Positions 6,407 to 51,165 of a stretch of DNA of 64,000 nt are shown here, piece by piece. Below the pieces are notes generated by a model that searched no databases, was not told the origin of the DNA, and worked only from the letters and a program-made list of their open reading frames with translations. This DNA comes from Azolla caroliniana (Eukaryota > Plantae > Polypodiophyta). The position numbers were made by a program, and so were the translations under genes. Where the stretch lies: contig JBHGNT010000006.1 in NCBI GenBank assembly GCA_043228905.1, positions 12,028,001 to 12,092,000 of the forward strand, given 5' to 3'. Each line of letters opens with the position of its first letter. Within the stretch, counting starts at the first letter, position 1.

Positions 6407-7921
6407 ATGAAACAAAAAGAAGAAGAAGAAGAAGGTGTTGAAGAGCAGCTGCAGCTAGTAGAGGTCAATACCAACAACAAGGTCACATCAAAGAGACTTC
6501 GTACAATTGAAGAGGAAAGAGTAGTAGGAGGAGGAGGAGGATTAGAGGAGCAGGGTATGCTACTTCAGCAGAATGGCATGGGCAACAACTTAAAGTCGGG
6601 GGCGGGGGGGCCATACTGGCAAGACCCAGTTCATGCATTGGCATCAGTCCGGCATGAGTTTGGCGAACATGGCGGGGTTAACATGTCTATCGAAGCATCG
6701 GCGACTTTCACGGTCATGGAGCCCGAGACATTGGGGAAGCTTTTCTCGGGAGAGCTCGGCCCCAGCATGGATTTCTACATCTATAGCCGCCACTTCAACC
6801 CGACGATCCTCAATTTGAGCCGACAATTGGCGGCCTTGGAAGGCACCGAGGCGGCCTACTGCACCTCGAGCGGCATGTCGGCCATCTCCTCTGTCCTTCT
6901 CCAGCTTTGCGATCATGGGGACCATATAGTGGCTTCGAGCCACCTCTATGGGGGTACTTTTGCGCTGCTGTCTCACTTCCTCCCCAGGACATGTGGGATT
7001 ACGACTACTTTCATCGACATATTCGGCGAAGATGCGGAGGCGGAGATCCGTGCAGCTTTACCCTCGGCCCGGGTTCTTTACCTAGAGTCGATCTCGAACC
7101 CGACCCTCTCGGTGGCAGACATACCCCGCCTATCGGCCATAGCGAGGGAGGTGTCGGCTGCCCAACAGAAGGACAGGCGGCGGCCGATCACGGTGGTCGT
7201 GGACAACACATTCGCGCCCGTCATACTCTCCCCGGCCCACCTTGGAGCAGACATAGTAGTCCATAGCATCTCCAAGTACATAAGCGGGGGCGCTGACGTA
7301 ATCGCCGGGGCCGTGTGCGGGCCCGCCGCGCTCATCGACTCCATGATGGGGCTCCAGCAAGGTGCATTGATGCTCCTCGGCCCCACCATGAACCCGAATG
7401 TTGCGTTCAGCATCTCGGAGCGCATCCCGCACCTGGCGCTGCGGATGAAGGAGCATTGCCACAGGGCACTCACCTATGCCACAAGGCTTCAGACTCTGGG
7501 GCTCAAGGTTATTTACCCAGGCCTCGAGGAACATCCGCAACACCATCTTTTTAAGAGGCTCGCCAACGCCGGCTATGGCTATGGGGGCATGATGGGCATC
7601 CATCTGGGGACCAAGGAAAGAGCTTATAAGTTTATTCACTACCTTCAAAATAATGTGCAATTCGGATTCATGGCGGTGAGCTTGGGGTACTACGAGACGC
7701 TAATGTCGTGCCCAGGTTCGAGCACCAGCAGTGAGTTGAGTGTGGATGAGCAAGAGCGAACCGGCATTTCGCCTGGCCTCGTTCGCATGTCGGTGGGCTA
7801 CACGGGCACGTTGGAACAACGGTGGAACCAGTTGCTCGAGGCCCTTACTACCCTCGATCTCGTTCAACCCAACACGAAGAGGGTCCCTAGTTATAATGCT
7901 ACAACTACTTCAAATCATTGA
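6407..7921 (+). CDS. MGL: Methionine gamma-lyase (PLP-dependent, Cys/Met metabolism family), 504 aa, intronless
   Basis: Plant MGL signatures: RHEFGEHGGVNMSIEASATFTVMEP, YSRHFNPT, SSGMSAIS, VVDNTF, HSISKYISGG (PLP lysine), AVSLGYYETLMSC, GISPGLVRMSVGY. ORF is uninterrupted. Confidence 0.95.
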   Translation: MKQKEEEEEGVEEQLQLVEVNTNNKVTSKRLRTIEEERVVGGGGGLEEQGMLLQQNGMGNNLKSGAGGPYWQDPVHALASVRHEFGEHGGVNMSIEASATFTVMEPETLGKLFSGELGPSMDFYIYSRHFNPTILNLSRQLAALEGTEAAYCTSSGMSAISSVLLQLCDHGDHIVASSHLYGGTFALLSHFLPRTCGITTTFIDIFGEDAEAEIRAALPSARVLYLESISNPTLSVADIPRLSAIAREVSAAQQKDRRRPITVVVDNTFAPVILSPAHLGADIVVHSISKYISGGADVIAGAVCGPAALIDSMMGLQQGALMLLGPTMNPNVAFSISERIPHLALRMKEHCHRALTYATRLQTLGLKVIYPGLEEHPQHHLFKRLANAGYGYGGMMGIHLGTKERAYKFIHYLQNNVQFGFMAVSLGYYETLMSCPGSSTSSELSVDEQERTGISPGLVRMSVGYTGTLEQRWNQLLEALTTLDLVQPNTKRVPSYNATTTSNH

Positions 7922-11233: not shown

Positions 11234-12076
11234 CCTTTAATAAAGTGAATGTATCGAGGTTCAAACCATTTTCCTTCACCAATGTAGCCAAACTTATTCA
11301 CATTTGTATCTTCTAAACAATGAATATTTCACCTATTGGTTCTTTCTACCTATATCACATCTTTCATCAATTTAGTTCTTCTGAACCATTCTACTTCAGA
11401 ATCAGAGGAAGGAGATCTAGATTTCCCAGGACACCAAAAAGCATTGCAAAACAAAAGAAAAGGGACAAATGAATGCAGGTCATGTAAGTAGCGAAGCTAT
11501 TGTAGAGTTTGCGAAGCGTCAAGGATTGAATATATTACAGAGCAACAAAAAGAGATTTCAGTTACAATTTAGAGCTTCTTACCCACATTTGTGTGTGAGG
11601 AGTAAAACACTTAAACTGACAGTTCAGCGAGTGAGAGCTTCCATGGTGGAGACTTTGTGAGGTATGAGAGGAACAGGATATGTATTGGGGGGCGGTGTTA
11701 TCTTGTGGCTCAAGTTTTGGCCATGTATACATACATTATAAATTATAATACATACTTGTCCCCACAATTCCCAAACCAAACATGATATGTGGTCCACTAG
11801 AGCTGGCTGGTTGGCAAATACATAGACACACATGTGCATCGTTTTACTCACGAAAACCGATTTATGGGCATGTCTTGCCACGCCACACCATTGCTGTGCT
11901 TGCCAACCAATGCCTGCTTGCATCTAGCAATTGACAACGGTTCGGTTCGGTTTGAGGGGGTCCAAACCGAACTGTTTAGAGATGTTGAAACTTGAACCGA
12001 ACCGAACCGAACCGAACCACAAAACTGTTAAACCGAACCATTAAAAAATTGTCAAACCGTTAAGCCATTAAACCGG

Positions 12077-12767
12077 TGTCATGGAGAAAACTGTCCCTAG
12101 GCGGAATCGGAGAATGATGTGCGCGAACCGGCCCTTACACGCGGGCACAAGTTTTGTTGTAATGTACATATTTGGGTACAAGTCGGCTAATGTGAATATC
12201 GTAGGTCGCACGGATTTGATAGGTAGGAAATCAAGGCATATCTCTGTCTGAAAGGACAGAGAATAAAGATGATGTAACAAGTTGTAACGGCCTCCCTCCT
12301 TGGGCTATAAAAGAGAGGGAGAGGAATCGTAAAGGGGATCGCTTTTGTCGAGGGCGAAGTGCTGTCGGACTGGGACCGAGCTCTTCTCCTCCGTCTTTCT
12401 CTGTATTTTGCTCTGTGCAGGTTTTGGAGAGGCTGACTCTGCTCCGCGGAACGCCCGAGTGCTTCTGGCAGAGTCTCCATCTCGCTCTTCTGTGTGTGTG
12501 TGCGTAGGCGTGGGAGATTCGTCGCTTACCGACCTGCCGGTTGTAACCCCTTATTCATTAGAATATATATATATATATATATATACATATACGCATTTGT
12601 CTCGTTTCCGTTGTTTCATTCGGTTGCGATTTCTGTGTACCTGTGTGTGTGTGTGTGTGGAAGCACGACCGTTGTCTTTCTTGCTCCTACTCCTGATCGG
12701 TTATTCCTCAGTCCAAGTCCCCCATGGTCCAGCCTCGTTCTATACGCACGCACGTAACAACGCGACA
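12077..12767 (+). repeat. 5' LTR of G1 (691 bp)
   Basis: Direct repeat of 18334-19022; contains CTATAAAA and TA/TG microsatellites. Confidence 0.95.
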
Positions 12768-12771
12768 TATT

Positions 12772-12789
12772 TGGTGAACCCGATGTGAA
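12772..12789 (+). promoter_or_regulatory. Primer-binding site complementary to the tRNA-Trp 3' end
   Basis: TGGTGAACCCGATGTGAA. One C>T change from the complement of the plant tRNA-Trp 3' end (...UUCACGUCGGGUUCACCA, from memory). Confidence 0.85.
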
Positions 12790-12812
12790 AAGGCGGCAGA
12801 GGAATAGAAAAT

Positions 12813-15800
12813 ATGAGGGGATCCGAGCTTGTTGAAGCTATGGCAGTAGTTGTCGACTGGCTAGTGAGTGCTCGTGAGGGAACGGGTGCCCTTAATAGGG
12901 CCATAGAATCGATTGTCGGCACCATAGCCTGATTCGGTGGGAAGAATGCCACGAGCTATTTGGAGGCCTATTGGGCTGAAATGATCATGAGGGACATCCC
13001 GGAGGACAGACGACTGTCTGGATTCCCTCGAGTGGTGACGCCGAGCATCCACGTGGAGGTGCTCGAGGTGCTAGCTGGATGCCAGGCTTGGGTGGAGCTC
13101 GAGGGGCGGCTCCTCGAGAAGTATGGGTACGACGATTCGCTTCAACTATCGAAGCGGGACTTCATGGCTTGGGCCTGGGAAGGGGAGGATCGGGAGAAGG
13201 TCGCTCTCCTATTGGAGACGGATGACGGCCTCACGGCCGACTAGGCTGTGGTCAAAGGGGTCTGCGCCCGCTTTGACAAGTGGCGCGAGGAGGTCTCGAC
13301 GGCGTCGGAGCCGGTCCCGGCAAGGAAGCTCGAGGAGCCGGTATCGGTGCCGGCTGGGAAGGAAGAGACTCGGAATTGGCTCGAGATGGGCCCAGCCTCA
13401 AGCGGAGTGGTCCAAGGCTCTTCTGGAGGAGCGGCTCTGGAAGAGCTGACGCAAATGGTGCGCGACCTCCAGATCGCACAAGCATGGAGGGACAACGGCG
13501 ATCAACCTCGTGATCGGAGGCCGCGGACGGGGCAACGATGCATGTGGTGTGACGCGGTCGGTCACATCCGGAAAAAATGCGCGGATTTCATAGAGGCACT
13601 TCGGGCCAACGTGGTGTACCTCTGGAATGGGCGGGTGCATGCCGGCGACACGCTGAAAGCCCTAGAGTTGAACAACGGGCGCGGCGGGATGAAGCGCTTG
13701 ATGGAAGAAGCCGCGACGCGACATGTAGAGGCCGTCCACTACTCCGGGTCGGGGGCGACGAGGGTCGAAAGGCGAAAGACCCCGGATTCTGGCTGCTGGT
13801 GCTGGAAGGCCTCTCCGGGGTACAGTTAAAGAAGGAGGAGGCGGACCGCGTGGAATAGCGGATCCGGGGGGTCACCGGATGGGACGATCCAGTTGAAGAG
13901 AAGATTGGCTTCGTGGAAGCCGCATGCCAGAACTACGGGGTTTTGGTAGAAGACAAGCGCGCGGGAAGGGCTAGAGAGGCCGGTCCCTCACAGCGGTACG
14001 AGACCCGGTTCAGACCAAAGCAGAACGATGCTGGCAACACCGGGGTGCCGAATAGAACGAAACGGGCCGGTTACCGGTTGAGCACGGAGATTGAAAGGTC
14101 AACGGACCTGCGGAAGGTCCTCGAGGAGCGGATTCTCGACAGCAAGGTGGAGCTGTCGCTGAGGAAGGTGCTCGGAATCGCCAAGAAGGAGTTCCACGAC
14201 TCCATTGTGGACTTCGTGAAGCAAAAGCGGTTCTCGATGGAATCGGGGCCGGAGAAGTTCGTGGAGGTGCGGATGACGCGCCTAGAAGACACAGCCCTAG
14301 AGGATGAGTTGGCGGACAGCTACTACGTGAAGCCACATTGGGCCAAAGCCACTATGGAGACCCCTGTTTGGGTTGGGGACGTGCAGGAGCCGGTGGTGGC
14401 ATTGATAGACCACGGCTCGAAGATCAACTAGTCCATGGACTTCTACAAAATGGGGAAGTGGCCGATCAACACCAAGCATGGGTGGAAGATACGCATGACG
14501 ACACACGCTACGAAGGAGCTGCATGGTGCGTGCCCGAATGTACGCATAAAGATCAACGACGTTGAGATAGATCAACACTTCTTTGTGCAGGAGACCTCCT
14601 CGCACCCGGTGATACTCGGCGAGCCATACATTACCGCGGCACGGATGGAAACGAAGGTGCTTGACAACGGATCGGCGTATTGTGCGCGTGAAGAGCCAAG
14701 ACGGACAACGCTCCGTTCAATTTTTGACGGTGAGGCCGAACCATGAGCGTAATCGTGAGACCCTCGGCGGCGAGAGCCGAGGGGATTTTTAGAGAGGGCT
14801 ATCAAGGCGTGGGGCCGGGCCGAGATAGTCCGGACTCCTTGGAAGAACCCCACGCATGTACCATAAATAGGAAATTTTGGTTCTCCGATAACGGAGGTTG
14901 TACTATAGCCGGCCTCAGTGGCCAGGAAAAGAAGCGAGTGGAAGAAAGACTCAGAGCGTACAGAGTCCTCGCCCCTGGCGAAGAGATTGGCGGTGCCGTG
15001 GAGGCAGTTTCCTTCGATGACACCTTGGGGGAATTACGCGAGGTTGTCGAGGGAGGCCTTAGTGAAGACCAGGCAGTTCTGGTTAGTTCAGTGGAGATGT
15101 ACGAAGTCATCGCTGACTTCGGGGAAAGGGTCGGGTTCGATCGGACGGCCCGAGTGGATACGAAGTACAAGATTGTGGACCGGAAGGCGAGACCAGTCGC
15201 GGCACCCTTGCTGGAGGGCAGCGAGTTACGGATGAAAGGGGTCGCGTCAGACCCAAGTTTAGGAGATCCGGCTGGCATAGGACACCGATTCACCGACATA
15301 ACGTTACGAGAGCTCAAGGTCGGTGGGGGTGGCTTTCTACTGCTGGCGGAGGAGGACCGGTTTCGGAGAATGCTCGAGAGGCACGGAAAGGCCTTCGCAT
15401 TCTCGCCGGAGGAGATCGGGTGCGTAGACCCGACGATTGTGGAACCAATGGTGATCTTCACGGTACCGCATGTACCGTGGAATCTCAAACCGATTCTAGT
15501 ACCCAGAGCTCACATCCCGAAGTTGATGGAGCTATTGAAACAGAAGGTGGATATGGGCATCCTCGAACCGTCGAGGGCCCCGTATTCTAATCAGTGGCTT
15601 ACCGTGCCCAAGAAGAACGACACATTGTGCTTCATCTAGGACCTACAACCGGTCAACAAGGTGACCATTCGGAACGCAGGAACCAGACCGACCATAGACG
15701 AGTTCGTGGAGGCCTTCGCCGGAAGGTCAATTTACTCGGTTGGTGATCTGTACTCGGGATACGATCAGTTCTAGCTAGCTGTGGAGAGTAGGGACATTAC

Positions 15801-18260
15801 GACGATGCAGACTCCTCTCGGCCTAGTACATATGTGTACCCTTCCGCAAGGAGGGACGAACTCGGTAGCCCACATGGTGAACGCAATGAACAAAGTGCTA
15901 AGGGATTGTATCCCAGACATCACCATGCCATTCTTAGACAACATCCCGATCAAAGGATGCCCGATGGAGGATAAGGACGAGACAATCGGACCGGACGGAT
16001 GCCGGAAGTTCGTGGCGGACCACGTCGATGACTGGGAGAAGGTGCTGCAAAGGCTAGAGGGCGCAAGGCTCACCTTCTCTGGGGAAAAATCGGCCTTCGG
16101 GAAATCGGAGATCATGGTCATCGAACACCTATGCGGGCCATTCGGTCAAAAACCGTCGCTGGCCAAGGTAGAGGCCATCTCCGCAATGAAGCGCAATTGC
16201 AATTCGGTCACGGAAGTCCGGAGATTCTTGGGAGCATGCGCGTTCTACCATATCTGGATCCCGCATTATGCCCATGTTGCGGAGCCGCTCTATGGATTGC
16301 TGAAGAAAGGGTGTAAAGTCGAGTGGAGAGAGGAGCATACGGAGTCAGTCCGAAAAATGAAAGGAGCACTTGTTGTGGCGCCGACACTCCGGAAAGTGGT
16401 CTACGGTAAAGACATTCCGATTTACGTGACCATAGACACGAGTCCGACCAGAATTGGATGGGTGATCAACCAAGAGGATGAGAATGGCACGAGGTTCCCC
16501 ATCCGGTTCGGCGCAAAAGTCCTCAGTGAACGACAGCGAGGGTATGCCCAGGTTAAACGCGAACTCTAGGGTATCGTTTCGGCGGTCAAGGCCGACAAAG
16601 ACTATCTGATTGGGATGGAGGTGATAATTGAGACGGACTGCCTGCCGATTCTCGGTATGGTTTCAAGATGTGTGATGCCGGACCTGGCAATGCTCAGGTG
16701 GATAGCGTACATCAAGTCCCTGAATCCGGAAATACGACACATTTCCGGAAAAGACAACGCCATGGCCGACATGCTTTCGAGGGCGAGATTCGATGATGAG
16801 GACAACATGGTTTTGGAGGACGAAGAAGTCGGCGTGGACTTCTTCGAGACGACTTACGTAACAACAAGGAAGGGGAGCACTCCGGCGCTTAACGAGTTCG
16901 ACGAGAGTAAGTATGACGGGGAGTGGCTCCAGACGGCGGGTTCCTGAAGACAATGACATTGGACATGGCGTGGACGAAGGAAGAGACCAACCGGATTCGG
17001 AAGAAAGCGTACCGATTCTTCTTACGGGATGGGTGCATATGGAAGCACCCGAAGAAGAGAAACGACATCCCGCTCCGGGTTGTGGCGAACAAAGAGGAAC
17101 AGGTGGAACTGTTGACAACGTACCATGAGAGTCCTTGGGCTGAATACTGCGGGACGTGGGCCACATTCGAGAAGCTAAAGGGGAAGTACTGGTGGCGGGG
17201 ACTATACCGGGACGTGCATCGGTTCATGACGGCTTGTGAAAGCTGTCAGATGCACTCCATAGTCCGACGTCGGGATGAGCTCCACCCGACCTACCCTCCG
17301 ACTATCCACTTCAAGTGGATTGTGGATATGGTGACGATGCCGATGGGGGTAGGGCAGATGCGATATCTGGTGCTGGCCCGAGAGGACCTGACAAACCAGG
17401 TGGAAGGCCGAGCATTGCCGAACAAAACGACCGCGGTCGTGTGCCGATTTCTGATCGAAGAAGTGGTATGTCGGTACGGGTGCGTAGGAAAGATCGTAGC
17501 CGACCACGGAGAACTGGATGCAAAGGAGGCTGAAGAGTTGTTTGACCGGCTAGGGGTTAAACTCTCGCTCACCACGGCGTACAATCCGGAGGCGAACGGG
17601 AAGGTGGAATGCGGACACGGGCCGATTGTCAAAGCGTTAGTGCGGGCATATGGAGGCCAAGTCGAAAATTGGCCGCGGCTCTTACCCTATGCGTTGTGGG
17701 CCGACCGAACTATGCATAGTTCGGTAACCGGGTTCATGCTGGCGGAGCTGATGTACGGGCAGAAGCCGGTCATGCCAATGGAGCGAACGATCTCCTCATG
17801 GGCCACGGTGGACTGGAGAGACGAGATGAGCCGGGAAGAGCTGTTAGCGGTGCGGATTCGACAGCTCGAGCGAAGACCGGAGGATGTGGAACGAGCCGCG
17901 GAAAAGCTGCGGGCCGCGAGTGTAAAGAACAAGGGGTGATTCGACCGGACTCACAGACTAAGGCCGAAGAAAATCGAGGAAGGCGACTGGGTTCTGGTAT
18001 ATGACAACAACTTCGACAACCAGCACAAGGCGATGTAGAAGTTCGCAAGGAGGTGGTTCGGGCCTTACGTGGTTACAAGCGCCAATGACAATGGGACCTA
18101 CCATCTCGCGGAGCTTGACGGGACGAGGATGGGAGTACCAGTGGCCGAGAAAAGGATCAAAGCGTTCAAAAAGCGGCACAAGGATGAACCGGACCTGGAT
18201 GACTTGGATAGCGAGGACGATTGGTTCGGAGCGAATGGCGATCCGGAGGACGAAGGGTAA
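12813..18260 (+). pseudogene. G1 gag-protease and RT-RNaseH-integrase coding region, degenerate
   Basis: ORF pieces 12960-13244, 13248-13829, 13913-14431, 14435-14746, 14743-15639, 15781-16569, 16615-16947, 16923-17939, 18069-18260 are colinear with G2. Confidence 0.9.
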
Positions 18261-18333
18261 GCGCGGGCCGGTCTTCTCCGGCAAGAGTTTATTTTGGTGC
18301 ATACCGGTGGATGCGCGGTTAGGTGGGGGCGGA

Positions 18334-19022
18334 TGTCGTGGAGAAAACTGTCCCTAGGCGGAATCGGAGAATGATGTGCACGAACCGGCCCTTACACGCA
18401 GGCACAATTTTTGTTGTAATGTACATATTTGGGTACAAGTCGGCTGATGTGAATATCCTAGGTCGCACGGATTTGATAGGTAGGAAATTGAGGCATATCT
18501 CTGTTCGAAAGGATAGAGAATAAAGATGATGTAACAAGTTGTAACGGCCTCCCTCCTTGGGCTATAAAAGAGAGGGAGAGGAATCGTAAAGGGGATCGCT
18601 TTTGTCGAGGAGGAAGTGCTATCGGACTGGGACCGAGCTCTTCTCCTCCGTCTTTCTCTGTATTTTGCTCTGTGCAGGTTTTGGAGAGAGTGACTCTGCT
18701 CCGCGGAATGCCCGAGTGCTTCTGGCAGAGTCTCCATCTCGCTCTTTTGTGTGCATGTGCATAGGCGTAGGAGATTCATCGCTCACCGTCCTGCTAGTTG
18801 TAACCCCTTATTCATTAGAATATATATATATATATATATACATATACACATTTGTCTCGTTTTCGTTGTTTCATTCGGTTGTGGTTTCTGTGTACCTGTG
18901 TGTTTGTGTGTGTGGACACATAACTGTTGTCTTTCTTGCTCCTACTCCTGATCAGTTATTCCTCGGTCCAATACCCCCGTGGTCCCGCCTCGTTCTATAC
19001 GCACGCGCGTAACAACGCGACA
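18334..19022 (+). repeat. 3' LTR of G1 (689 bp)
   Basis: Direct repeat of 12077-12767, preceded by the PPT and followed by TSD CCGG. Confidence 0.95.
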
Positions 19023-20828
19023 CCGGTAAACAACGGTTTCGTGGTTGGGTTTCGGTTTTTTGCGTAGGTCAAATTTTAAACTTTAAAAATTTCCCCAAAA
19101 TGTGAGAATAAGGCATGAAAATGAAAAGATTAATTGAAAACAAAATTAATTAATTAATTAATTATTTATTTATATTTTTTTGAATTAAAAAAAACCGTTT
19201 AAATCGTGGTTTCTAACTATTGAAACCAAACCGAACCGTTAAAACAACCCGAACCTGAACCGAACCGTTAAAACCATTAAGTTGCGGTTTCGCAGTTCAG
19301 TTCGGTTCAAACCGAACCATTGCCGATTGCTACTTGCATCGTCTCTTCGCACGTAGTCTCGACTCAAATGCTTCATCTCAAGCACCTCGTGTTGTTCGCC
19401 TAGAGTATGCACTCAGTCTTGCCATCAACATGTTTGTCATCGTCAGCATCTCCTTACCTCTTAGGCTTCTACGAGTCATCGGTCCATTCACATCTACGAT
19501 GTCTTTCGGATTTTAGCCATGCATATATGAGCATCTGTTTGTGTGAGCATTTTGATGCATGCGTGCAAAGCAAAATCCTCATTTGTTGGGAAAATCCTTG
19601 ACAACTCGAAACACTACTTGTGTTAATGTATAATGGTTATGCAAACAAAGAGTCAACACCTATCCATAATGTTGCGCCAAATGAGATTTGAACACACAAA
19701 GTTGAAAATTATCTAGTAGACTAGCACATGCTTTACATCTAAATCATCATGAAGAAAATACAAATTTATGTTATATATTTCTACAAAATATAAATGTCAT
19801 ATTTGTCCTTGAATTTTCTAATTAATCATGGAAGAATGACCTAGAATATACATCCACAAATGCCAACTCCATTGGCCTTATGGTGATTGTTAGATTCTAG
19901 ACATTAATGGCATACATTCACTATTCCTTACTAGCAAAGTGGGTAAATTTGATGGGTATATTCTACTTATCATATTTGTTGAGGGACCACCTAGAAACTT
20001 GATGCAGAACAAAGGGGAGCAAGACGAGAGCGATTGATAACATTTGAATGAAAAGATAATGCACTAGCAAACAAAACATCTCTCTCAGAGAGTTGTCTTT
20101 GTTGCTCTAGTGCAAGCTCAAAAAAGAGAAGTCTCCTGGATTATGCACAATCCCTACTTTTACATGTTCACACGTAAAAACTAATGGTCTCAATTATTAG
20201 AGCCTTTGGACCTCCGAAAGCCCTAGAGGTAGACAACATCTCATTCCACAAGATGGAATCTAATGAGATTTTGGGATGATAGCATCTTGGAATCAATTTT
20301 GGAATCGTCGACGTGGATGCATGTTGTTCGCTCCCATTGCCCACAAAGGAATTTTGGGCTTATGAGTTATGTGATCCTCCAAAAGCTTCATCTAATGAAT
20401 TTTACAAGTCAGCATCTTGAATTGATTTTTTGGAATAGTTAATGTGGAAGTGACCTAGTCGCTTTAGTTACCAACAAAATAATGGCATGGCTTACAAATT
20501 TGTGAATCTCTCTAGCAAATTTCATATTGCTAAATTCTGACAAGTCAACATATTGGAATCCATTTTGCAAGTGTTGATGTTGAAGTACACTAGATCCCAT
20601 CACACATAAAAGGGAACTAGAGTTAGTGATCCTCACCTCCCACCAATGCTTTGAGCATGCAAATTGAATTTTAGAACATGGGCTATTCACTTCCCCCTCC
20701 CTCTTTGACTTTCTTTTATCATGTTCAGGCTATATACCTTAGCGTGTTAAATCTCACTATTTTACAACATGATCACAAAAAATGTAGATGTTGAACGCAT
20801 CATCTTTTGATCAATCTTAGTGATAATT

Positions 20829-25917: not shown

Positions 25918-26622
25918 TGTATATATTACAAGGTCCGTCTAGATTCTTTAATTGCCAAAATTAATTGCTCCTATTCCCATATAATTTGTGTATGTGCCTC
26001 AGCTCTCCTCTGCTCAACTACGCCCTTAATTTGATGCCTACCCTACCCTGGGATTCCTTCTACCAAGTGCTAATTCCAGCATGTACTTCTTCTTCTGCCC
26101 AAACCACCTATCCATTTTTCCTTCAAAGTCTGACCCCTTCCTTGCTATATATACACACACACACACACACACATAACTAACTCTCTTATGATCCTATAAA
26201 TCTACTGCTCTGCATCAATTAAGCTCCTCCTCCTACTGCGACTACTACTAACACAAATCAATCTGCTATGGAAGTGTACTTGCACTTTGCTTGATATCAG
26301 TCCTTTCAGAGAGGTGCTACTGAATCTGTTATTAAGTCCTCAGGAATAGTTAACTAAATTAATTAATTTGTGTCAGTCACTATTGCCGAGTGTCCTCTAC
26401 AGGATACTGGTTCATCTTAGAACTATACTAATTATTGTTACTTATTTTGAATTGTGACTTGGTAATCTTCTATACTGCCTCTTCCAAGCACTGCTGAAGA
26501 AGCTCTCCATTAATCCTTCCATAAGCCTACATGGGTATTACAGATCCCCTACCATAAGTGCCTCTCAAGGAAATACTAAAATTTTCGACCCCAAACAAAT
26601 AAACATCTAATAAGTTAAAATC

Positions 26623-28616
26623 ATGGGTGGAGGTCGTGAAGGGGGTGGGCAAGTTAACAGTAGCAAAATGAGTTCTGCAATGGCTCTAGTAGTGAGTTCC
26701 CGAAGAATCATGGCAAGCGCAAGCAGTAGTAGTAGTACTACTACTAGCAACACTGCAACAAATTCTTCGGGAACAGGAACTGTGACCCCTCAGAAACGCC
26801 GCTCATTGGCCGAGTGTGTGAGTGGCGGCACCACCACCACCTCTTCCTCTAACTCCTCCTCTGCCCACAACCACCAGAGAGGCAGCTCACCACATAACAA
26901 ATACTCTCTCCACAAACGGCCCCGCACAAGCTGGGGCAAACCTCACTCCAACCCGTCTCTCCTCCTCTGTTCCCCTTTACTATCCTCCACCCACACCAAC
27001 TCCCCTCCACCCACACCAACCGATCATGATCGCCAATCCTTCTCCAATTCACACTTCATCGTTCCCACTACTCCTTCCTCCGTTTTCTTCGTTAAAACTG
27101 AACCCCTGCAAAACCTCGCTGTCTTTAGACTGCCTGGCTACACTGACCAAACCTATGGTGATTTCGAAGATGACTTCGACGAGCCTCGGCTTCACCAAGT
27201 TCCTTCATTCTTCCCTATCGAGCATCTCCTCCTTGACATGAGTGGCCAAAATAATGCACACACCTCGGCTGCTCTTCCTCTTTCACCCACTTCACCAGGC
27301 TGCTTTCCACCATCACTTTCTGGTTCGGCATGTGTCTCCACTAGCTCACCCATATCACCTCTCTCTGTATCCGCTGCCAGCTCTCCAATCTACTCCTCTG
27401 CCACTGATGAGTATAGCATTTCTGGTGATTTGAGGTGGCCGGAGGGCACCAATTGCCTCGAGGATGAATCATGTGATTTCCTGAGCGATCGCTTCTATGA
27501 GATCGAGACAGAGATGAGATGCATCATGGGTGAGAGTGCATCCTTGGATCATCATCATGACCATGAACATGATCTAATCACTGAGCTGCCAAACACTTTG
27601 ATTGGTTCGGCACAGTGTGTAGTGAAATTGGTGGTGCCCAAGCTTGAGGAGGTAGCTCCAGGTGATTATAGCCAGAGCACAAGTGCGATCTGGGAGTTGA
27701 GCAGCACAAGCCGGACAACACAAGAATCCGATGAAGAGTATCGAATCGATCTCACAGATTTTGAGCTGGAACAGGGTGACTCTGGTAGTGAGCTCAACGA
27801 TATTTACGAGCAAAAACCATCCGTGAGCAATGCTGGAAAGCTGGCACTGATGCTAAACTATGAGGACGTGATCAATGCGTGGTCAGATCGAGGGCCACCA
27901 TTTTCAGGTACAAGTTGGCCAGAGACCACAGCATCACCAGAGGAGGTAGAGCTAGATTTGGCGGTGAGTACTAAAGACTAACTTGTTAAATCCAATCTTT
28001 GAACATTAAAACTTCAACCATAAATTATAAAATGTACACTCTATGCTAGACCTTAGAACCTAAACCCTAATAACGAACGCATAAACTAAGTCCTAAAACT
28101 AAACACCCTATATGAAAACCTAGGACCTAAAAGTACCCTACACCTCACACTTAACCTTAAACTAGATCTGGATCAATACGTCAATGACGATACGATTGAT
28201 GCTGTAGGCATGGGAGCCTGAGAATCAACTAATAGCAGCAGCTCAAAGCTTCGACATGAGCTTGAATGTGGCAGGGACGATGATACAGCTGCCAGAAGCC
28301 GGTGGAGCTTTGGCAGTGATGCTCATGGAGGGTGGCGGAGATCACCCACCCACACCAACATCCGCAGTACGTCAGGCAAGCGTGCTTCGCTACCGTGAGA
28401 AGCGGCGGACTCGACTCTTCTCAAAGAAGATTCGTTATGAAGTTCGCAAACTCAATGCGGAGAGAAGACCTCGCATGAAGGTATTAAATGGTTGCAAATA
28501 AGTTCTTCTGATGGATTCATTCGCACCTCCATTGTTTCTATATGAATCAAACATCAAAGCCTAAATACATTTTGGCTTCGCAGGGGCGCTTTATCAAGAG
28601 GTCTTCCCTCGACTGA
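26623..28616 (+). CDS. CCT-domain transcription regulator, CIA2/CIL-like (no B-box); exons 26623-27963, 28208-28480, 28584-28616; ~548 aa
   Basis: Ser-rich N-terminus, [16 protein letters not shown] motif, CCT domain [37 protein letters not shown]|GRFIKR. Introns GTGAGT...TGTAG and GTATT...CGCAG are both phase 0 and keep the frame. Confidence 0.9.
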
Positions 28617-36073: not shown

Positions 36074-38579
36074 TGACGACACCGTACTTCGGCATCTTCT
36101 TCTTTCCCTTCTCTTCGCGCATAAGCTGTGTCCTAGACTTCCGATGCGGGGATTGCACGACCGAGTCTCCACTACTCGCCAACTTTGCGTTTGATTGGTC
36201 ATGCTGACTCGGTCACTCATTCAGCCCACTTAGCCTGAATGAGATCAGACTCTCTTCAGGAGCTCCGATGTTTGCTTCATCCCGAGGCATTTTAGCCTCG
36301 CTGACCTCTTCGTCAGAGATCGGAATGGAGTCGTCAGGGGTTGGAGGCGAGGGCAAGTACCACCACGCAGACTCGTCAAACACAACATCACGACTTACGT
36401 GAGCTTGTTTGGTTCGGGGGTTATAACACTTTTAACCCTTCAGTTCGTCGAGTAGCCAACCAAGATACACTTCTTGGCTTTGGCGTCCAGCGTCCTCCAT
36501 TTCCCCTTCGGCACATGCACATACGTGATGCTACCGAAAACCCTCAAGTGTGCCAAGTTCGGCTTCTTCTTGAAGTACAACTCATGTGGAAACACTCCTC
36601 CATTGGTAGATGCCCAATTCTGGAGGTAGACGACTGTTCTGATCACTTTGGCCCAATAGAACTTTGGCAGATGCTTCTCTTCAAGCATTGCCCTTCCCGC
36701 CTCCTCTATCGTCTGATTCTTCCTCTCGGCCACATTGTTCTGCTATGGCATGTATCTAAACCAGAATTCGCGTCGAATTCCCTCCTTTTGTAGATATCTC
36801 GAGAATTGGTTGGAGAAGTACTCCTTCCCACCATCGGACCTTAGGCACTTGATCTTTCTCCTAGTTTCCCTTTCCGCAAGGCTCTTTACTAGTAGGAAAC
36901 ACGCGAAGACATCTCTCTTTTTCGTGATCAAGTATGCCCAAGTGTGCCGAGTGAAGTCCTCGATGAAGGTTACGAAGTAACAACTTCCTCCGATGCTCAC
37001 GTTCTATGCCGGTACCCATACATTGGAATGCATCACATCGAGCGTATTTCGACTCCGATTACGCTCGTTGGGGAATGGAAGTCGACTCCAACAGATCACC
37101 GATAATCCATGACTGATGCATTTGCCAACGAGATTCGAAATAGTCTACAAAATCCCTCCAAGTTGCTCAAAAGGAGATGGACCTTGACCACTTCACCATA
37201 CAAGATGGTTTGTTATTCCACGATCATCTCTTATATGTCTCGGGGGGCTTGTGTCGCACCCGAGTATTGCGGGAATGCCACGATGACCCCCTTGCAGGTC
37301 ACTTCAGAGTTGCAAAAACCCTCGAGCTAATCTCTCGGGGGTACTAGTGGCCAAAACCATGGAAGTTGGTCAAAGAATACATCAAGACTTGTGAGGTTTG
37401 TGGTCGCTCCAAAGTGGCTCATCATTGCCCATATGGCTTGGTTCACCCGCTTCCATGTCCTAGTCGTCCCAGGGCCTCTATCTCTAGGACCTCATAACTG
37501 ATCTACCCTTGGTCAATAGCTATGACTCAGTGTTGGTCGTTGTTGATTGGTTTACAAAGATGGCTCACTTCACTCCATGCTCAAAAACCATTTCCAGCAA
37601 AGGAATGGCGCATCTACTCCTCAATAATGTCGTATGTTTTCATGGCCTCCCTGATGATGTCATCTCTGATCGCGGACCCCAATTTGTCTCTCACTTCTAG
37701 CAGCGCCTTCTGCAAACTTTAGGCATCTTGGTCAAGTTTTCCTCCGCCTATCACCCTCAGACTGACGGTAAGACGGAGTGCGTCAACCAAATCCTTGACC
37801 AATCACATTTGCTAACCCTTCGGCAGAGGGTTGAGCCCGGGTTTTAGAAGAGCTACATCATGACTTATCCTTGGAGCTTCGTCTCGTTGGTGAACAATAC
37901 AAGAAGCACGTCGATCGCCATCGCTCTGTGACTCCCCCCTTTGCCGTTGGCGACATGGTCTGGTGGTTATGATGGCACATCCCTACTACCCGTCCATGTG
38001 TGAAATTTGATTATAAGAAGTTGGAACCATTCTATATAGTTGAGCGCATTAATTCCATCGCCTTGTTGTCTGCCGGAATAGTAACCGATGGACAGAAGCA
38101 AAGAAGTATTATAATATAGTAAAAGCGTAAGAAACGTATGTAACGGTTCATGCAGGAAGCGTGAACGGCTAAAAGACCCTGTGTATATAAAGGGCAGATA
38201 TCCTCTATAAGAGGTAGTGTGTAATTTTGGTGCATAGAGCGTTATTTTAATAGAGTACTATCTTCTCTGATTTCTGTGCATATCTGTGGTTGATCTATTG
38301 TGTTCTTTGATTCTCGGCCACGTATTGTAATTGTAAGGGCGTAGGCGTAAGTGCGGTTACTAGTGCACTATCTAAGGAGTTCGGTTGTAGCCGTCTCCCT
38401 TATACACTACTAGGATACAGGGAAGTATCCCATTATGTATTACGGTACGACGATACCATTCTTTGCAACGTAGTCACCTTGAGGTCTAGGTTGAAGGACT
38501 GACCGTAGACCGTGTTCCTAATCAGTAACACTTTTGGCACGCAGACTGGTGATCTGTGTCTTCTCACAGATGAACAACG

Positions 38580-43763: not shown

Positions 43764-43820
43764 GTATAGGGCTCTACTTGTACTGTAGTGTACAAATAAT
43801 ATTGTATGTAACTGTTATGA

Positions 43821-43890
43821 AAGAAGAAGAAGAAGAAGAAGAAGAAGAAGAAGAAGAAGAAGAAGAAGAAGAAGAAGAAGAAGAAGAAGA
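43821..43890. repeat. (GAA)n microsatellite, about 23 units, between pol and the extra ORF of G3
   Basis: Directly visible. Confidence 0.95.
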
Positions 43891-45203
43891 TAGCGACGCT
43901 ATTAAAAGGACTTGATGCATGCACAAACTTCTAGAGCAAGAACACACGACACCACGATGGCTCACAGACCAATGAACCCTAGGCCACAAAAAGAAGAAAA
44001 TAGAAGGTTTTCTGCACAGTACAGAAACCAACCTTCTAACTCTCATCGCTCTCATCACTCCCCTCACTCACCTTCCTCTCCATCCTACCATAGAGCCCAA
44101 GTTCGCCATAACCAACATACCTCACCCACTATCCACGAGTCTCACCCTCCTACGGTGCCGATCCCTATTTCCTGCCACCTTGCGTAGATGGCTCGTCGAG
44201 AAGCGTCTGGATGGATACATCAAAGTCGCCGAGGTACCCACTCATCTTAAAGCCCTGGACATCGTCAAGAAACTCAATATAGACACGGTCACCAACTCAT
44301 CAATTCGGAAGAAGCTTGACCTATCATCGTTCGGAGAAAGACATTTTGACATTCCTCCAGCGGAAACCTTGTAGAGATATTTTGAGGCATATTCAGCGTC
44401 CGCCAAGGCATACAGGACGAAGGAAATCCCCGATCCCTTCTTCTGCGAAATAGCCAAGTTCTTGTTGGAAGTCGGATGCTTGCATGTAAATTGCCTATGG
44501 GATGCCAAAACAGAAGGCATGCAGCATCATTGATACCTTCGAAGGGCGCGCGGTCGATTAGGGGGTCATTACGGGACCAATGTTACAGGAAGGCCTGCAC
44601 GCGTATCAAGGCGGCAAAAAGCTAAGGCCGATCATACAATAGTATCTGATGATACTATTCCCACCCCAGGGTCTGCCTGCACCACAACCCAGCAAGCCCA
44701 CACCGCCGCCACGTTTTGCGAAACGGAGGTTAGCGGAATTGGTCACCAAAAAATGGGAGGATGAACCCCAATCGGCCCAACCCAGCATGCGGACAACACA
44801 TGAAGAATGGCCGGAGCGCAGGGAAGAAGCCCCGCAGGAGCAGGAAGCCGAGCAACGTCAGGAAAGCCCGAGGTTGAAACGGCAGAGGTTGGACAGGAAA
44901 GATGGGCGCGGATTAGTTAAAGACACACTAGCGGCCGTAGCTACGGAGCCCAACACCACTTTCGAAATAATCCGGGAACCACGACCGATCATTATGGCCC
45001 AGTCTCAGCGGGGGAAGGCGTATTTACAGCAGAAAGCGAGTTCCTGAAGTATCCGGATATTCCGGACACAGGCCACGAGTTCGGTGCACTATTACAGTTC
45101 GGCACTACTTACGAACTCATGGAATTTTTGGCAACACAACAAATAAAAGTCTCACAACGAATGGCCGAGGAGCACGCGGAGCAACAAATGATTGAGTGCA
45201 CGT

Positions 45204-48200
45204 TGTCGTGAAGAAAACCGTCCACAAGCGGAATCGGTGCACCGGAGCGTAGGAACCGGCTCTTCATGCACGTACACCTTATGTTGTACATAAGAGAGAA
45301 TTAGGTACATAGAAGATCCTAGGTAGGTAGATTCGGTAGGTAGGAAGTTAATGGGAAACAGCTCCTTTCTTGCCTATAAAAGGAGGGAGACGGGGAGGAG
45401 GAAAAGGGGGGATCGCGGTTAGAGAAGACGAAGTGCTGTCGGGTTGTCGGCCGAAGGCTTCTCTCTCTTCCATACTCCGTAGCTTCTTCTTGTGCAGGTT
45501 TTCGGGGAGGCTCGCGCTGCTCTGAGGAATGCCCAAGTGCTTCCGGCAGCACCTCCAACCTACTCCTTTCTTTCTGAGTGTTTACGAACAGGCATCGACA
45601 TCTGTTCGCCGGCCTTTTCGGTTGTAACCGACTTCGGGCTTCTTGTTGTTTGTCCTTGTTAATATATATATACATACATTCGTGTCTCTCTGCGTCGGTG
45701 TCCCACTCGCGTCTTTGTGTCGAAGGGCCGTGTCCCTGTGAATCTACGCCCACACGTAGTGGGTCCCTTCCCTTCTCCTTTGTCTCTTGCTCTTCGGTAC
45801 AAGACCCCCGAGCCCCCGCCTCATTCCACGCATCCATGAGGAATACCTCGACATCTTGGTGAACCCGACGTGAAAGAGGCGGCAGAAGAGCAGAAGATGA
45901 AGGGGTCGGATCTTGCGGAGGCCATGGCTTCGGCCGTGGATCGGATATTGAGCGCACGCAAGGGCACCGACGCCCTCTATAGAGCCATTGAGGTGGTCGT
46001 CGGTACGATTGGCCGGTTCAGCGGAAAGGATGCCACGAAGTATTTGGCGTCCTACGGGGCAGAAATGTTGATGCGGGGCATTCCGGAAGAGAGGCGTCTT
46101 GCCAGGTTCCCTCGAGTGGCGATGCCGAGCATCCATGCGGAGGTGCTCGAGGTACGGGTGGAGAGCCGTACCTGGGAGGAGTTCGAAGGCCGACTCCTAG
46201 AAAAATACGGGCTGGATGACGCGCTCCGGCTTGCGAAACGGGACTTCATGGAATGGGTGGAGTCCCCCCCGGCAAGGGAAGAAACGCGTCGGCACTCCTC
46301 CGGGAGTTTGAGGAACGCTTTGCGCGCCTTTCGGCGCTTGACCGAACCGTTCTGGATACGAGCCGGGTCCTACTGTTCGTCAAGTCGGTGGACGAGCGGG
46401 ACCGGGATCAAGTCGGCTCCTTGCTGGAAACCAAAGACGGGCTGACGACCGACTGGACTGCGGTTAAGAGAGTCTGTGGCCGTTTCGACAAACGGCGAGA
46501 ATGGGCTGATAACGGGGCGGCCGGTGCGGGCTCTGTCACAGCAAGGAGGCTTGAACCGGCCCCGCAAGGGCGAAGGGAAGAGACCCGGGAGTGGCTCGAA
46601 ACCGGTTCGGCTTCGACCGGCATGGTCAATGGCTCGTCCGGAAGAGCAGCGCTGGAGGAGTTGACGTGGGCGATAAAGGATCTCCAGATCGCCCAGGCTC
46701 GAAGGGAAGGCGGCGAACCGGCTCGTGACCAGCACTTCTTTGTGCAGGAGACGTCCTCGCACCCGGTCATATTAGGGGATCCATACATCACGGCGGCGCG
46801 GATGGAGAACAAGCTGCTAGACAACGGTTTGGCCTACGTGAGGGTCAAAAGCCAGGACGGGCGCCATTCGGTCCAATTTCTGACGGTGCGACCGAACCAC
46901 GAGAGAAACCGCGAATCCCTCGGTGGTGAGAACCGGGAGGTTTTTTAGAGAGGGCTGCCAAGGCATGGGGCCGAGACAGTCCGGACACTCGGGAAAGACC
47001 CCACAACTGTACGATAGAACCGAAACCGAAGAAACCTTGTACGATAGGTAGAAAATTTTTCTTCTCCAACGACGGTGGGTGTATGATAGTCGGCATCGTT
47101 GGCCGAGAAAAGGCAAGGGCGGAGGAGCGACTTCGAGCGTGCGGAGTTCTCGGCCCGGACGAGGAAATCAGCGGAGCCGTGGAGGTGGTCTCCTTCGACG
47201 ACACCTTGGGGATACTGAGGGAGGTAGCTGGAGAAGACCTTAACGAAGACCGGACGATACCGGTATGTTCTGAAGAGATGTACGAAGTCATCGCGAACTT
47301 CAGTCAGGGGCTCGGGTCGGATCGGACGGCCCGGGTTAGCACGAAGTACAAGACTGTGGACCGGAAGGTAAGGCCAGTCGCAGCACCCTTACCGGAGGGC
47401 AGCGAGTCCCGGATCAGAGGGGTTGCGACGGACCCCAGTTTGCGAGATCTGGTCTGCATAGGACACACCTTCACCGACGGGACGCTCTGGGAGCTCAAAA
47501 TCGGTGGGGGCGGGTTCCTACTGCCAGCGGAGGAAGACCGGTTTCGGAGAATGCTCGGAAGGCACGGGAAAGCCTTCGCATTCTCACCATAAGAGATCGG
47601 GTGCGTAGACTCGACAATCCTGGAGCCGATGGTGATATTCACGGTACCGCATGTGCCGTGGAATCTCAAGCCGATTCCAGTACCGAGAGCTCACATCCTG
47701 AAGTTGATGGAGCTATTGAGGTAGAAAGTCGATATGGGCATTCTCGAACCGTCGAGTGCCCCATACTCGAACCGGTGGTTTACCGTACCAAAGAAAAACG
47801 GAACATTGCGCTTCATTCGAGACCTGTAGCTGGTCAACAGAGTGACCATTCGGAACGCAGGAATCAGACCGACCATAGACGAGTTCGCGGAGGCCTTCGC
47901 CGGAAGGTCGATTTACTCGGTCGGTGACCTGTACTCGGGGTACGACCAGTTCCAGCTAGCCGTTGAGAGCAGAGACATTACGACCATGCGAACTCCCCTT
48001 GGCCTAGTGCGAATGTGTACCCTGCCACAAGGAGGGACCAATTCGGTGGCCCACATGGTGAATGCAATGAACAAGGTACTGAGGGATTGCATCCCGGACA
48101 TCACCATGCCATTTCTAGACGACATCCCGATCAAGGGGTGCCCGGTGGAAGAGAAGGACGAGACACTCGGGCCGGACGGATGCCGACGATTCGTGGCAAC

Positions 48201-51165
48201 ACACATCGACGACTGTGAGAAGGTGCTACGAGGGCTAGAGGTTGCGAGGCTCACCTTCTCCGGGGAGAAATCGGCCTTCGGTCAATCAGAAATCCTGGTG
48301 GTCGGACACCTATGTGGACCATATGGCCGGAAGCCGTCCCCGGCAAAGGTAGAAGCCATCTCCGCGATGAAGACCGACTGTAGCTCGGTTACGGAAGTTC
48401 GGAGGTTCCTGGGGGCGTGCGCATTCTACCACATATGGATCCCGCATTACGCCCACGTTGCGGAGCCGCTATACGGGTTGCTGAAGAAGGGGCGAAAATT
48501 CGAGTGGCGAGACGAGCACACAGAGTCGGTCCGGAAGCTGAAGGAAGCTCTTGCGGCAGCACCGGCGCTCCGGAAGGCTGTCTACGAGAAGGGTACCCCG
48601 GTATACGTAACGGTGGATACGAGTCCGACCGGGATCGGATGGGTCATCAACCAAGAAGACGAGGACGGCATTCGGTTCCTGATCCGATTCGGCGCAAAGG
48701 TCCTCAGTGAGCGACAACGAGGGTACGCCCGGGTTAAACGCGAACTCTAGGGTATCGTTTCGGCAGTAAAGGCCGACAAAGACTACTTGATCGGGACAGA
48801 AGTGATTATCGAGACGGATTGCCTGCCAATTCTCGGCATGGTCTCCGGATGCGCGACACCGGACCTGGCGATGCTCAGGTGGATAGCGTACATCAAGTCC
48901 TTGGACCCGGAAATACGACACATTTCCGGAAAGGACAACGCCATGGCCGACATGCTTTCGAGGGCGAGGTTTGATGACGAGGGCGTCATGGTTTCGGAGG
49001 ACGAAGAAGTCGGCGTGGACTTCTTCGAGGCGGCGAACGTGACGACCGATGGGGCGAGCACTCCGGCACTTAACGGCTTCGACGAGAGCAAGTACGACGG
49101 CGAGTGGCTACAGATCGGTGGTATTTTGAGGACAATGACGCCGGATGCGTCATGGACGAGGGACGAGGCCAACCAGATCCGGAAGAAAGCATACCGATTC
49201 TTTCTCCGGGACGGATACTTATGGAAGCACCCAAAGAAGAGGAACGACGTCCCGCTCCGGGTGGTGGAGATGAAGGAAGAACAAGAGGAGCTGCTGACGG
49301 CCTACCACGACAGCCCTTGGGCTGGACACCGTGGAACGTGGGCCACGTTCGAGAAGATAAAGGGGAAGTACTGGTGGCCGGGACTGTACCAGGACGTGCA
49401 TCGGTTCGTGACAACTTGCGAGAGCTGTCAGATGCACTCCATAGTCCGACATCGGGACGAGCTTCACCATACGTACCCTCCGACCATCCACTTCAAATGG
49501 ATGGTAGATCTGGTGACGATGCCGATGGGAGTAGGACAGATGCAGTATCTGGTTCTGGCTCGGGAAGATCTGACGAACTAGGTGGAAGGCCGAGCCCTTC
49601 AGAACAAAACGACCGCGGCCGTATGTCGGTTCCTGATCGAGGACGTGATATGCCGGTACGGGTGCGTCGGGAAGATCGTGGCTGATCGCGGGGAGTTGGA
49701 CGCCGAAGAGGCCGAGGAGCTGTTCGACCGGCTAGGAGTCAAGCTGTCGCTTACCACTGCGTACAATCCGGAGGCGAATGGGAAGGTGGAGCACGGACAC
49801 GGACCGATCGTCAAGGCGTTAGTTAGGGCATGCGGAGGTCAAGTCGGGAACTGGCCGCGGCTGCTGCCTTACGCGTTGTGGGCTGACCGAAGTACGCACA
49901 ATTCGGTAACCGGATTCATGCCGGCAGAGCTCTTGTTTGGGCAGAAGCCGATCATGCCGATGGAACGTACAATCTCCTCATGGGCAGCCGTGGATTGGAG
50001 AGACGAGATGAGCCGGGAGGAACTGTTGGCGGCGCGCATACGACAGCTCGAGCGAAGACCGGAGGACGTGGAGCAGGCTGCGGGAAAGCTTCGGGTGGCA
50101 AGGACGAGGAACAAAGCCCGGTTCGATAGGACGCACCGGCTCCGACCAAAGAAGATTGAGGAAGGCGACTGGGTGCTAGTCTACGACATCAGCCTCGACA
50201 ACCAGCACCGAGCGACACGGAAGTTCGCAAGAAGGTGGTTCGGGCCTTACGTGGTACAAAGCGCCAACGACAACGGGACGTACCATCTGGCAGAACTTGA
50301 CGGCACGAGAATGGCGATACCGGTAGCTGGGAAGCGGATCAAAGCGTTCAAGAAGTGTCACGACGACGAGCCGGATCCGGTTAACCTGGACCGCGACGAC
50401 GAACGATCCGAAACCGAGGAAGAACCGACGGGCGGGGAATGAAGGCTGGACCGGTTTTCTCCGTCCCAACTCAATTTGGCGCATGCCGGTGGATGCGCGG
50501 TTAGGTGGGGGCGGATGTCATGAAGAAAACCGTCCACAAGCGGAATTGGTGCACCGGAGCGTAGGAACCGGCTCTTCATGCACGTACGCCTTATGTTGTA
50601 CATAAGAGAGAATTAGGTACATAGAAGATCCTAGGTAGGTAGATTCGGTAGGTAGGAAGTTAATGGGAAACGGCTCCTTTCTTGCCTATAAAAGGAGGGA
50701 GACGGGGAGGAGGAAAAGGGGGGATCGCGGTTAGAGAAGACGAAGTGCTGTCGGGTTGTCGGCCGAAGGCTTCTCTCTCTTCCATACTCCGTAGCTTCTT
50801 CCTGTGTAGGTTTTCGGGGAGGCTCGTGCTGCTCTGAGGAATGCCCAAGTGCTTCCGGCAGCACCTCCAACCTACTCCTTTCTTTCTGAGCGTTTACGAA
50901 CAGGCATCGGCATCTGGTCGCCGGCCTGTTCGGTTGTAACCGACTTCGGGCTTCTTGTTGTTTGTCCTTGTTAATATATATATACATACATTCGTGTCTC
51001 TCTGCGTCGGTGTCCCACTCACGTCTTTGTGTCGAAGGGCCGTGTCCCTGTGAATCTACGCCCACATGTAGTGGGTCCCTTCCCTTCTCCTTTGTCTCTT
51101 GCTCTTCAGTACAAGACCCCTGAGGCCCCGCCTCATTCCACGCATCCGCGAGGAATACCTCGACA
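45204..51165 (+). mobile_element. Gypsy element G2 (relative of G1), internally deleted, nested in G3
   Basis: 650-bp LTRs 45204-45853 and 50516-51165, roughly 3% different by my manual count. TSD ACGT/ACGC, PBS 45857-45874, PPT AGGTGGGGGCGGA. RT DLYSGYDQF / FLDDI, RH and INT colinear with G1. Confidence 0.95.
45857..45874 (+). promoter_or_regulatory. PBS, 18-nt complement of the tRNA-Trp 3' end
   Basis: TGGTGAACCCGACGTGAA, 3 nt after the LTR end. Confidence 0.88.

Follow-up and report, generated by a model that had tools for sequence, protein, structure and literature searches.

A conserved slippery heptamer, stop codon and predicted pseudoknot suggest programmed −1 frameshifting at the protease–reverse transcriptase junction of Phygy-like LTR retrotransposons, with a candidate switch to −2

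The junction between protease and reverse transcriptase (RT) in a Phygy-like LTR (long terminal repeat) retrotransposon of Ty3/gypsy type, of which a decayed copy (copy 1) and a copy of a sister family (copy 2) lie in a 64,000-nt stretch of the Azolla caroliniana genome (contig JBHGNT010000006.1, positions 12,028,001 to 12,092,000; hereafter the window), is very probably a site of programmed −1 ribosomal frameshifting. At this site, a G_GAU_UUU heptamer followed by the stop codon of the Gag-protease (Gag-PR) open reading frame (ORF) would lead into RT, RNase H (RH) and integrase (INT) in the −1 frame, with a predicted H-type pseudoknot as the stimulating structure. By comparison with related loci the cassette is confirmed as real and lineage-wide, and one branch is a candidate for a natural switch from −1 to −2 shifting. 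Copy 1 itself is a dead relic of the frameshift design, in which the cassette comprises the following elements:

14783..14789, + strand: slippery heptamer G_GAU_UUU (GGATTTT)
14790..14795, + strand: 6-nt spacer, with the Gag-PR stop codon TAG at 14790-14792
14796..14803, + strand: 5' strand of stem 1, GGGCTATC
14807..14814, + strand: 5' strand of the predicted stem 2, GCGTGGGG (14809-14814 common to close relatives)
14812-14816 and 14817-14821, + strand: GGGCC duplication, its second unit private to copy 1
14824..14831, + strand: 3' strand of stem 1, GATAGTCC
14848..14855, + strand: 3' strand of the predicted stem 2, CCCCACGC (14848-14853 common, G14854 private)

All coordinates assigned to the cassette in the initial annotation, which was made from the window alone, hold on re-reading the sequence, and GGGCTATC and GATAGTCC pair as proposed over 8 bp, including one G-U. 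The strands proposed for stem 2, GCGTGGGG and CCCCACGC, are indeed exact complements in copy 1, but their 8-bp length is partly an accident of this copy, since position 14854 is mostly A elsewhere (5071/5223, 2658/2807, 1542/1604 and 108/108 depth units in four runs, i.e. 95-100%); in relatives stem 2 has 4-8 bp, and 6 bp in the closest ones. The GGGCC duplication, which had been suggested to hide the pol frame, has no counterpart in copy 2 or in any of the 28 aligned relatives and sits within the knot, between the 5' strand of stem 2 and the 3' strand of stem 1. Because of this private duplication, the −1 frame of copy 1 does not run open through the heptamer: pol lies in the +1/−2 frame, and the −1 frame is shut after 27 codons. 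That pol falls into the −1 frame without the duplication is borne out by a natural locus, L131, which gives GFLERAIKAWGRDSPD in that frame. Furthermore, copy 1 is interrupted by no fewer than eight premature stops and four breaks of the frame, and through this damage, which includes an extra base near 14680-14683, just 57 in-frame codons precede the heptamer. Within the window, the motif of heptamer plus stop alone is not above chance (4 matches compared to 3.5 expected), and the stretch from copy 1 folded without pseudoknots is no better than its shuffles (z = −0.73), so that the case rests on comparison.

With respect to the DNA level, the best 80 of 183 loci, fetched by protease peptides and not by the motif, were analysed together with copies 1 and 2. 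Of these 82 sequences, 71 have a heptamer past the protease (62 GGATTTT, 5 GGATTTC and 4 GGTTTTT), which lies in the anchor frame in 69; two of the 82 are without the anchor and nine without the heptamer. The stop codon directly follows the heptamer in 62 of the 71, and TAG, TGA and TAA all occur among the relatives. Among the 63 loci for which 400 nt or more of downstream sequence are available, an open frame of at least 120 codons was found in the −1 frame in 44, in the +1/−2 frame in 3 and in the zero frame in 0; the counts of 71 and 63 both include locus L199, whose chosen site lies ~340 nt from the protease match and is probably wrong. A continuous gag-pol ORF, set beforehand as the finding that would speak against the proposal, was seen in none of the 63. 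Long loci show two clean ORFs, Gag-PR with ~710-770 codons and pol with ~1,150 codons, which in most cases overlap by 10-55 nt, and such a short overlap implies a narrow window for the shift. The post-protease stop, heptamer, stem 1 and −1 RT-RH-INT frame are kept far beyond the family of copy 1. In addition, contig depth, which reflects words shared among copies and not copy number, tops over the stretch from heptamer to stem 1 in seven of seven contig overlays with cover.

Several variants of the junction were observed alongside. Three loci (L185, L186 and L187) have two tandem in-frame G_GAU_UUC heptamers, three codons apart, just before the Gag-PR stop. In another sub-lineage (L177:4246-4330, together with 19 proteins ending in D/GF plus five residues) the stop lies five codons past the heptamer and falls inside a stem 1 of 12-13 bp, and the sequence of stem 2 is different. 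A second peak of contig depth is located just 3' of the knot (window 14860-14904; L131:678-711); it carries a donor-like AG/GTAG and, in copy 2 as in L131, a short semi-duplication. In viral contigs, 120 matches to a 14-mer were taken as chance, and one further locus was weak. Rfam gave no match for three loci.

At the protein level, searches with the Gag-protease region yielded 126 new proteins (68 + 58, the latter from the best 120 of 178), of which 27 eukaryotic gene models were set aside and 99 ORF calls counted. The matches of the first search, comprising the 68 proteins, are 32-79% identical to the window region; intact Gag-PR homologues have ~660-900 aa, and the named ones come from Physcomitrium, Riccia and Adiantum. 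As to their C-termini, 68 of the 99 ORFs end in DF, three in GF and three in NF directly before the stop, 19 in D/GF plus five residues, two in VFx, and four otherwise. An ending compatible with a slippery site is therefore present in 95 of the 99, while the tail preceding the DF-type pair differs in length and sequence among homologues. The residue before DF, GF or VF can be encoded by a codon ending in G in 92 of 92 proteins, in contrast to nearby residues, 30% of which cannot; these 92 proteins are related and do not represent 92 independent trials. The GF and NF endings, known from proteins alone, would fit the canonical sites G_GGU_UUU and A_AAU_UUU, respectively. Twelve of the 27 models set aside share this ending, with Physcomitrium, Riccia and Adiantum each represented, and no ORF-called match among the Gag-protease and pol homologues fused the protease and RT domains.

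Of the downstream RNA structure, stem 1 is well supported. In 28 cassettes from loci with long open frames, aligned by sequence only, pairing holds for its eight pairs in 218 of 224 cells, and four of the eight have changed on both sides; the score of a 9-pair helix was reached by 0 of 500 shuffles, a result which relatedness can inflate, and slid registers are paired to only 25-42%. This covarying stem begins 6 nt past the heptamer, within the 5-9 nt typical of programmed −1 frameshift signals. For stem 2, counting by column is precluded by the changing length of loop 3 and the sliding register. However, in a swap test with 17 hand-picked representatives each loop paired better with its own downstream strand (p = 0.003), and when positions were sampled with a simple knot scanner, the site after the heptamer outranked 93-100% of them in each of 18 representatives. 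Distant families have stem 2 sequences as different as GGGACA/UGUCCC, GGGGCU/AGCCCC, GAGGGU/ACCCUC and CAAGG/CCUUG. Folding without pseudoknots again placed copy 2, like copy 1, no better than shuffles, and four relatives at z-scores of −1.7 to −2.4. The pseudoknot, raised as a possibility in the initial annotation, appears likely as a prediction, although the evidence for it falls behind that for stem 1 and its second stem falls short of the 8 bp given there.

A number of observations weigh against a conserved, knot-stimulated frameshift. The 80 loci stem from a single group of assemblies and cover only 69-92% identity to the query peptide; nine of 80 anchored sequences are without the heptamer, most of them through visible mutations or truncation; and a long frame is absent from 16 of the 63 loci. 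In the synonymous-site test, windows at codons 21-28 are as low as the cassette, divergence being uneven. Furthermore, 15 of 39 anchored proteins representing 50% clusters extend more than 45 residues past the anchor; several of these resemble gene models in which the junction is skipped, yet at least one, e.g. P0190, could be a true single-ORF relative. With respect to the structure, stem 2 is a pair of a G-run and a C-run whose register slides between families, 11 of the 17 representatives are singly matched for stem 2 by more than 5% of shuffles, and in L131 and copy 2 a predicted 3-bp extension of stem 1 competes for the loop. The shortness of stem 2 (4-6 bp in most), its base composition, the weakness of single-sequence shuffle controls and the 3-bp extension could also mean that a real frameshift is stimulated by nothing but the hairpin of stem 1, which may carry a bulged extension. 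This is rather unlikely, given that stem 2 pairs of different sequence recur in distant families, that own strands pair best in the swap test, and that the knot lies in the top 7% of positions in every representative scanned.

Under the proposed −1 shift, most ribosomes would stop after the heptamer and release abundant Gag-protease, while a minority would slip from GAU UUU to GGA UUU, whereby the A-site tRNA-Phe would re-pair fully and the P-site tRNA-Asp partly; the slipped ribosomes would then produce a scarce Gag-PR-linker-RT-RH-INT fusion. The ORF layout, the conservation of heptamer, stop and stem 1, and the coding-type change in the −1 frame ahead of the first conserved Met are features of the loci as they stand; from these we infer the slip itself, the formation of stem 2 in the cell and a product ratio with an excess of Gag-PR. 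The use of G_GAU_UUU as a −1 site in a plant RNA virus, invoked in the initial annotation, is on record for pea enation mosaic virus (PEMV), where it shifts in wheat-germ extract with the help of an adjacent stop, the A-site tRNA re-pairing fully and the P-site tRNA partly (PMC4737148). Starts with G_GA and G_GU are listed among the exceptions to X_XXY_YYZ in a 2016 review.

Other routes across the junction fit the data far less well. Stop-codon readthrough was excluded, as pol is never in the zero frame. Splicing of the Ogre type, which would remove the stop and join protease to RT, could be suspected from eukaryotic gene models that bridge the junction by skipping sequence and from a donor-like AG/GTAG ~75-80 nt past the stop in close relatives. 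However, it is very improbable, since the −1 frame is open from the heptamer onwards in 44 of 63 loci, the distance from the stop to the pol anchor takes more than 10 values (353-395 nt) in a single frame, the linker thus differing by whole codons only, and third positions are in excess in the −1 frame even before the first conserved Met (674 compared to 371 and 397); together, the whole-codon linker and this excess argue against an intron as well as against re-initiation. Nor was a non-coding protease–RT spacer as in Ogre (~170-270 nt) found, as the ORFs overlap and the linker is open and coding-like. The stretches that the gene models skip, moreover, differ between copies. Bridging models of this kind, e.g. 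P0017, P0257 and P0276, occur in Riccia, Physcomitrium and Adiantum, and their skipped stretches are probably invented introns; a frameshift junction would explain why gene predictors skip it. Three runs were presumed to be RNA; of these, one probably represents DNA, another has a single contig, located off the junction, and the third shows no joint.

Similarly, there is little chance that pol arises by re-initiation or internal initiation, with the hairpin serving initiation or packaging. ORF callers do begin pol at downstream Met or near-cognate codons, and a Met ~300 nt downstream is widely retained, but no conserved AUG is found near the stop, coding-type evolution in the −1 frame is already seen in the ~100 codons 5' of the retained Met, and initiation would leave unexplained why the heptamer is constant and its distance to the stem does not vary. 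Least probable of all is slippage of a polymerase, instead of the ribosome, on the U run. Most copies do have five to six consecutive T, but the G_GAU_UUC loci L185 and L187 have long pol ORFs with only three, no indel at the run was seen among the contigs listed, and the fixed spacer and stem match the geometry of the ribosome.

While pol lies in the −1 frame in most of the sample, two families, L193 (L193:2498-2570) and L196 (L196:2836-2910), have the site AG_GUU_UUU, followed by one codon and then the stop, with the knot kept. In both, the −1 frame is shut within 2-7 codons, and pol (1,101 and 1,154 codons, respectively) lies in the −2/+1 frame; Gag-PR is unbroken in L193 (761 codons), and Gag has one stop in L196, whose protein cluster has five listed members ending in QVFD, four of them full length. 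At 82% mutual identity, the two pols group together amid −1 elements with 100/100 support, and midpoint rooting leaves the Riccia elements outside; this support does not come from a formal clade test, and the exact sister is unclear in the pol tree. The conserved G-C pair of stem 1 stands at 5 nt in L193 and L196, compared to 6 nt in the other 26 aligned rows, a contrast that is weakened by the fact that 13 of the 28 rows can gain one pair that shortens the spacer as well. The heptamer alone does not set the frame, as copy 2 combines G_GUU_UUU and a 6-nt spacer with a −1 pol. [quoted passage not shown]

The balance tips slightly towards a seed-free-plant lineage that would use a pseudoknot-driven post-protease −1 shift, and in which one branch would have switched naturally to −2 by the linked change of G_GAU_UUU to AG_GUU_UUU and the loss of one spacer base, with the pseudoknot kept. 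Since −2 and +1 give the same frame, DNA cannot tell the direction, and just two families are known. Given the clade, it is possible, if doubtful, that pol is instead entered from an upstream AUG or through a +1 slip on UUU_U or UUU_G; in-frame AUGs are located 17 and 26 nt 5' of the stop, and counting one additional pair gives several −1 families an effective spacer of 5 nt, too. However, both families keep the site known from PRRSV −2 shifting (PMC7618472), the A-to-U change enables tRNA-Phe to re-pair at −2 in the A-site, the base following UUU differs (U in one, G in the other), which fits poorly with a +1 shift, the AUGs are unaligned, and the 3' knot is retained. In PRRSV the stimulator is a protein and no RNA structure is involved (PMC7618472), whereas in L193 and L196 shifting would be driven by an RNA structure in nature and would have arisen from a −1 ancestor. 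If true, the switch would be a natural, RNA-structure-driven test of whether the slip takes its direction and size from the length of the spacer, and the spacer-tension model could be examined with a natural pair of sister signals.

The host element in the window is laid out as follows:

12073-12076 and 19023-19026: 4-bp target duplication CCGG of copy 1
12077..19022, + strand: copy 1, decayed Ty3/gypsy non-chromovirus LTR retrotransposon (Phygy-like), 6,946 bp
12077-12767 and 18334-19022, + strand: LTRs of copy 1, 93.6% mutual identity
12772..12788, + strand: primer-binding site of copy 1
12813..14792, + strand: Gag-protease ORF, broken in copy 1, ending ...G-D-F-stop, with a CCHC-like knuckle and a DUF4100 region in Gag
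near 14402-14419, + strand: protease motif LIDHGS
14824..18260, + strand: pol (~130-aa linker, RT, RNase H, integrase), broken in copy 1
18321..18333, + strand: polypurine tract
45204..51165, + strand: copy 2, sister family, LTRs 97.2% identical, target duplication ACGT/ACGC
46939..47003, + strand: cassette of copy 2, with G_GUU_UUU at 46939-46945, then TAG
46952-46959 and 46975-46982, + strand: stem 1 of copy 2, one compensated pair and one mismatch
46966-46970 and 46999-47003, + strand: predicted stem 2 of copy 2, 5 bp

The domain order of copy 1 is that of gypsy elements, with matches to the Pfam families RVT_1, RT_RNaseH, Integrase_H2C2 and rve; its interior is filled by the coding region, with neither an extra RNase H nor an extra ORF. 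A chromodomain is not listed for 54 pol homologues or for the scanned window ORFs (which leave out the last 100 codons of copy 1). The primer-binding site of copy 1 is presumably of the tRNA-Trp type; the window contains no tRNA gene. Copy 2 retains a primer-binding site and carries an internal deletion from Gag to protease, and its −1 frame is open for 217 codons.

According to Neumann et al. 2019 (PMC6317226), the Phygy clade is marked by a 4-bp target duplication NCGN and the lack of a chromodomain and of an extra domain or ORF; 81% of its elements have a tRNA-Trp primer-binding site, the 186 Physcomitrium elements measure 7,656-9,968 bp, and the clade is given as specific to one moss, with the polyprotein layout entered as 'ND'. 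Both window copies show the NCGN duplication (CCGG/CCGG and ACGT/ACGC), which together with the absence of a chromodomain or extra ORF and the DF ending shared by Physcomitrium Gag-PR homologues resembles Phygy. In contrast, copy 1 with its 6,946 bp is below the range published for the one species, and homologues also occur in Riccia and Adiantum. The element is called Phygy-like because it is shorter than that range and is linked to Physcomitrium through Gag-PR homology. The frameshift layout would fill the 'not determined' entry for Phygy.

Among retroelements, alpharetroviruses such as Rous sarcoma virus have Gag and protease in one ORF and reach Pol by a −1 shift. A post-protease shift is not unprecedented, since it is also found at the pro-pol sites of beta- and deltaretroviruses: in human T-cell leukaemia virus type 1 (HTLV-1) and mouse mammary tumour virus (MMTV), a −1 shift after the protease opens RT, at an H-type pseudoknot in HTLV-1, but in these viruses a first shift from gag to pro is needed, whereas here a plant LTR retrotransposon has a single Gag-PR ORF (PMC7075266, PMC5009743). 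With umbra- and dianthoviruses, exemplified by PEMV RNA2, the cassette shares G_GAU_UUU, a stop at or next to the site, a spacer of 5-6 nt and plant ribosomes; in PEMV RNA2, however, stimulation comes from a long hairpin with bulges that has a long-distance partner, in contrast to the compact local knot predicted for the retrotransposon (PMC4737148). Within plants, Ogre is split at the same place, between protease and RT, and is, like Bianca, a two-ORF element, but there the ORFs lie 170-270 nt apart on average, a distance spliced out in Ogre, while here they overlap by a few codons (PMC6317226).

According to PMC5580714, most LTR retrotransposons of plants have a single ORF and use splicing to balance Gag and Pol, and a 2003 survey, as reported in the 2016 review, counted just two plant types with separate frames, both +1. 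The accessible part of PMC7466625 does not discuss ORF layout. No description of the present signal was found in the literature searched, though subscription papers, Repbase/GyDB, and Figure 4 or the per-element tables of Neumann et al. 2019 may note it. A conserved pseudoknot-stimulated −1 site in elements of mosses, liverworts and ferns would add a recoding strategy to those of plant retroelements, and dozens of naturally diverged cassettes are available for the study of frameshifting on plant ribosomes.

Finally, copy 2 sits inside another gypsy element (about 38064-53500), which is more decayed. The window also contains two host ORFs on the + strand. A Ser-rich ORF of 455 codons (26614-27981) has a weak Pfam match and a C-terminal motif that we presume to be of the kind seen in CCT-domain/CONSTANS-like proteins. 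The other (6407-7921) is unbroken over 504 codons and belongs to the Cys/Met metabolism pyridoxal phosphate (PLP)-dependent enzyme family (Pfam E-value 4e-78).

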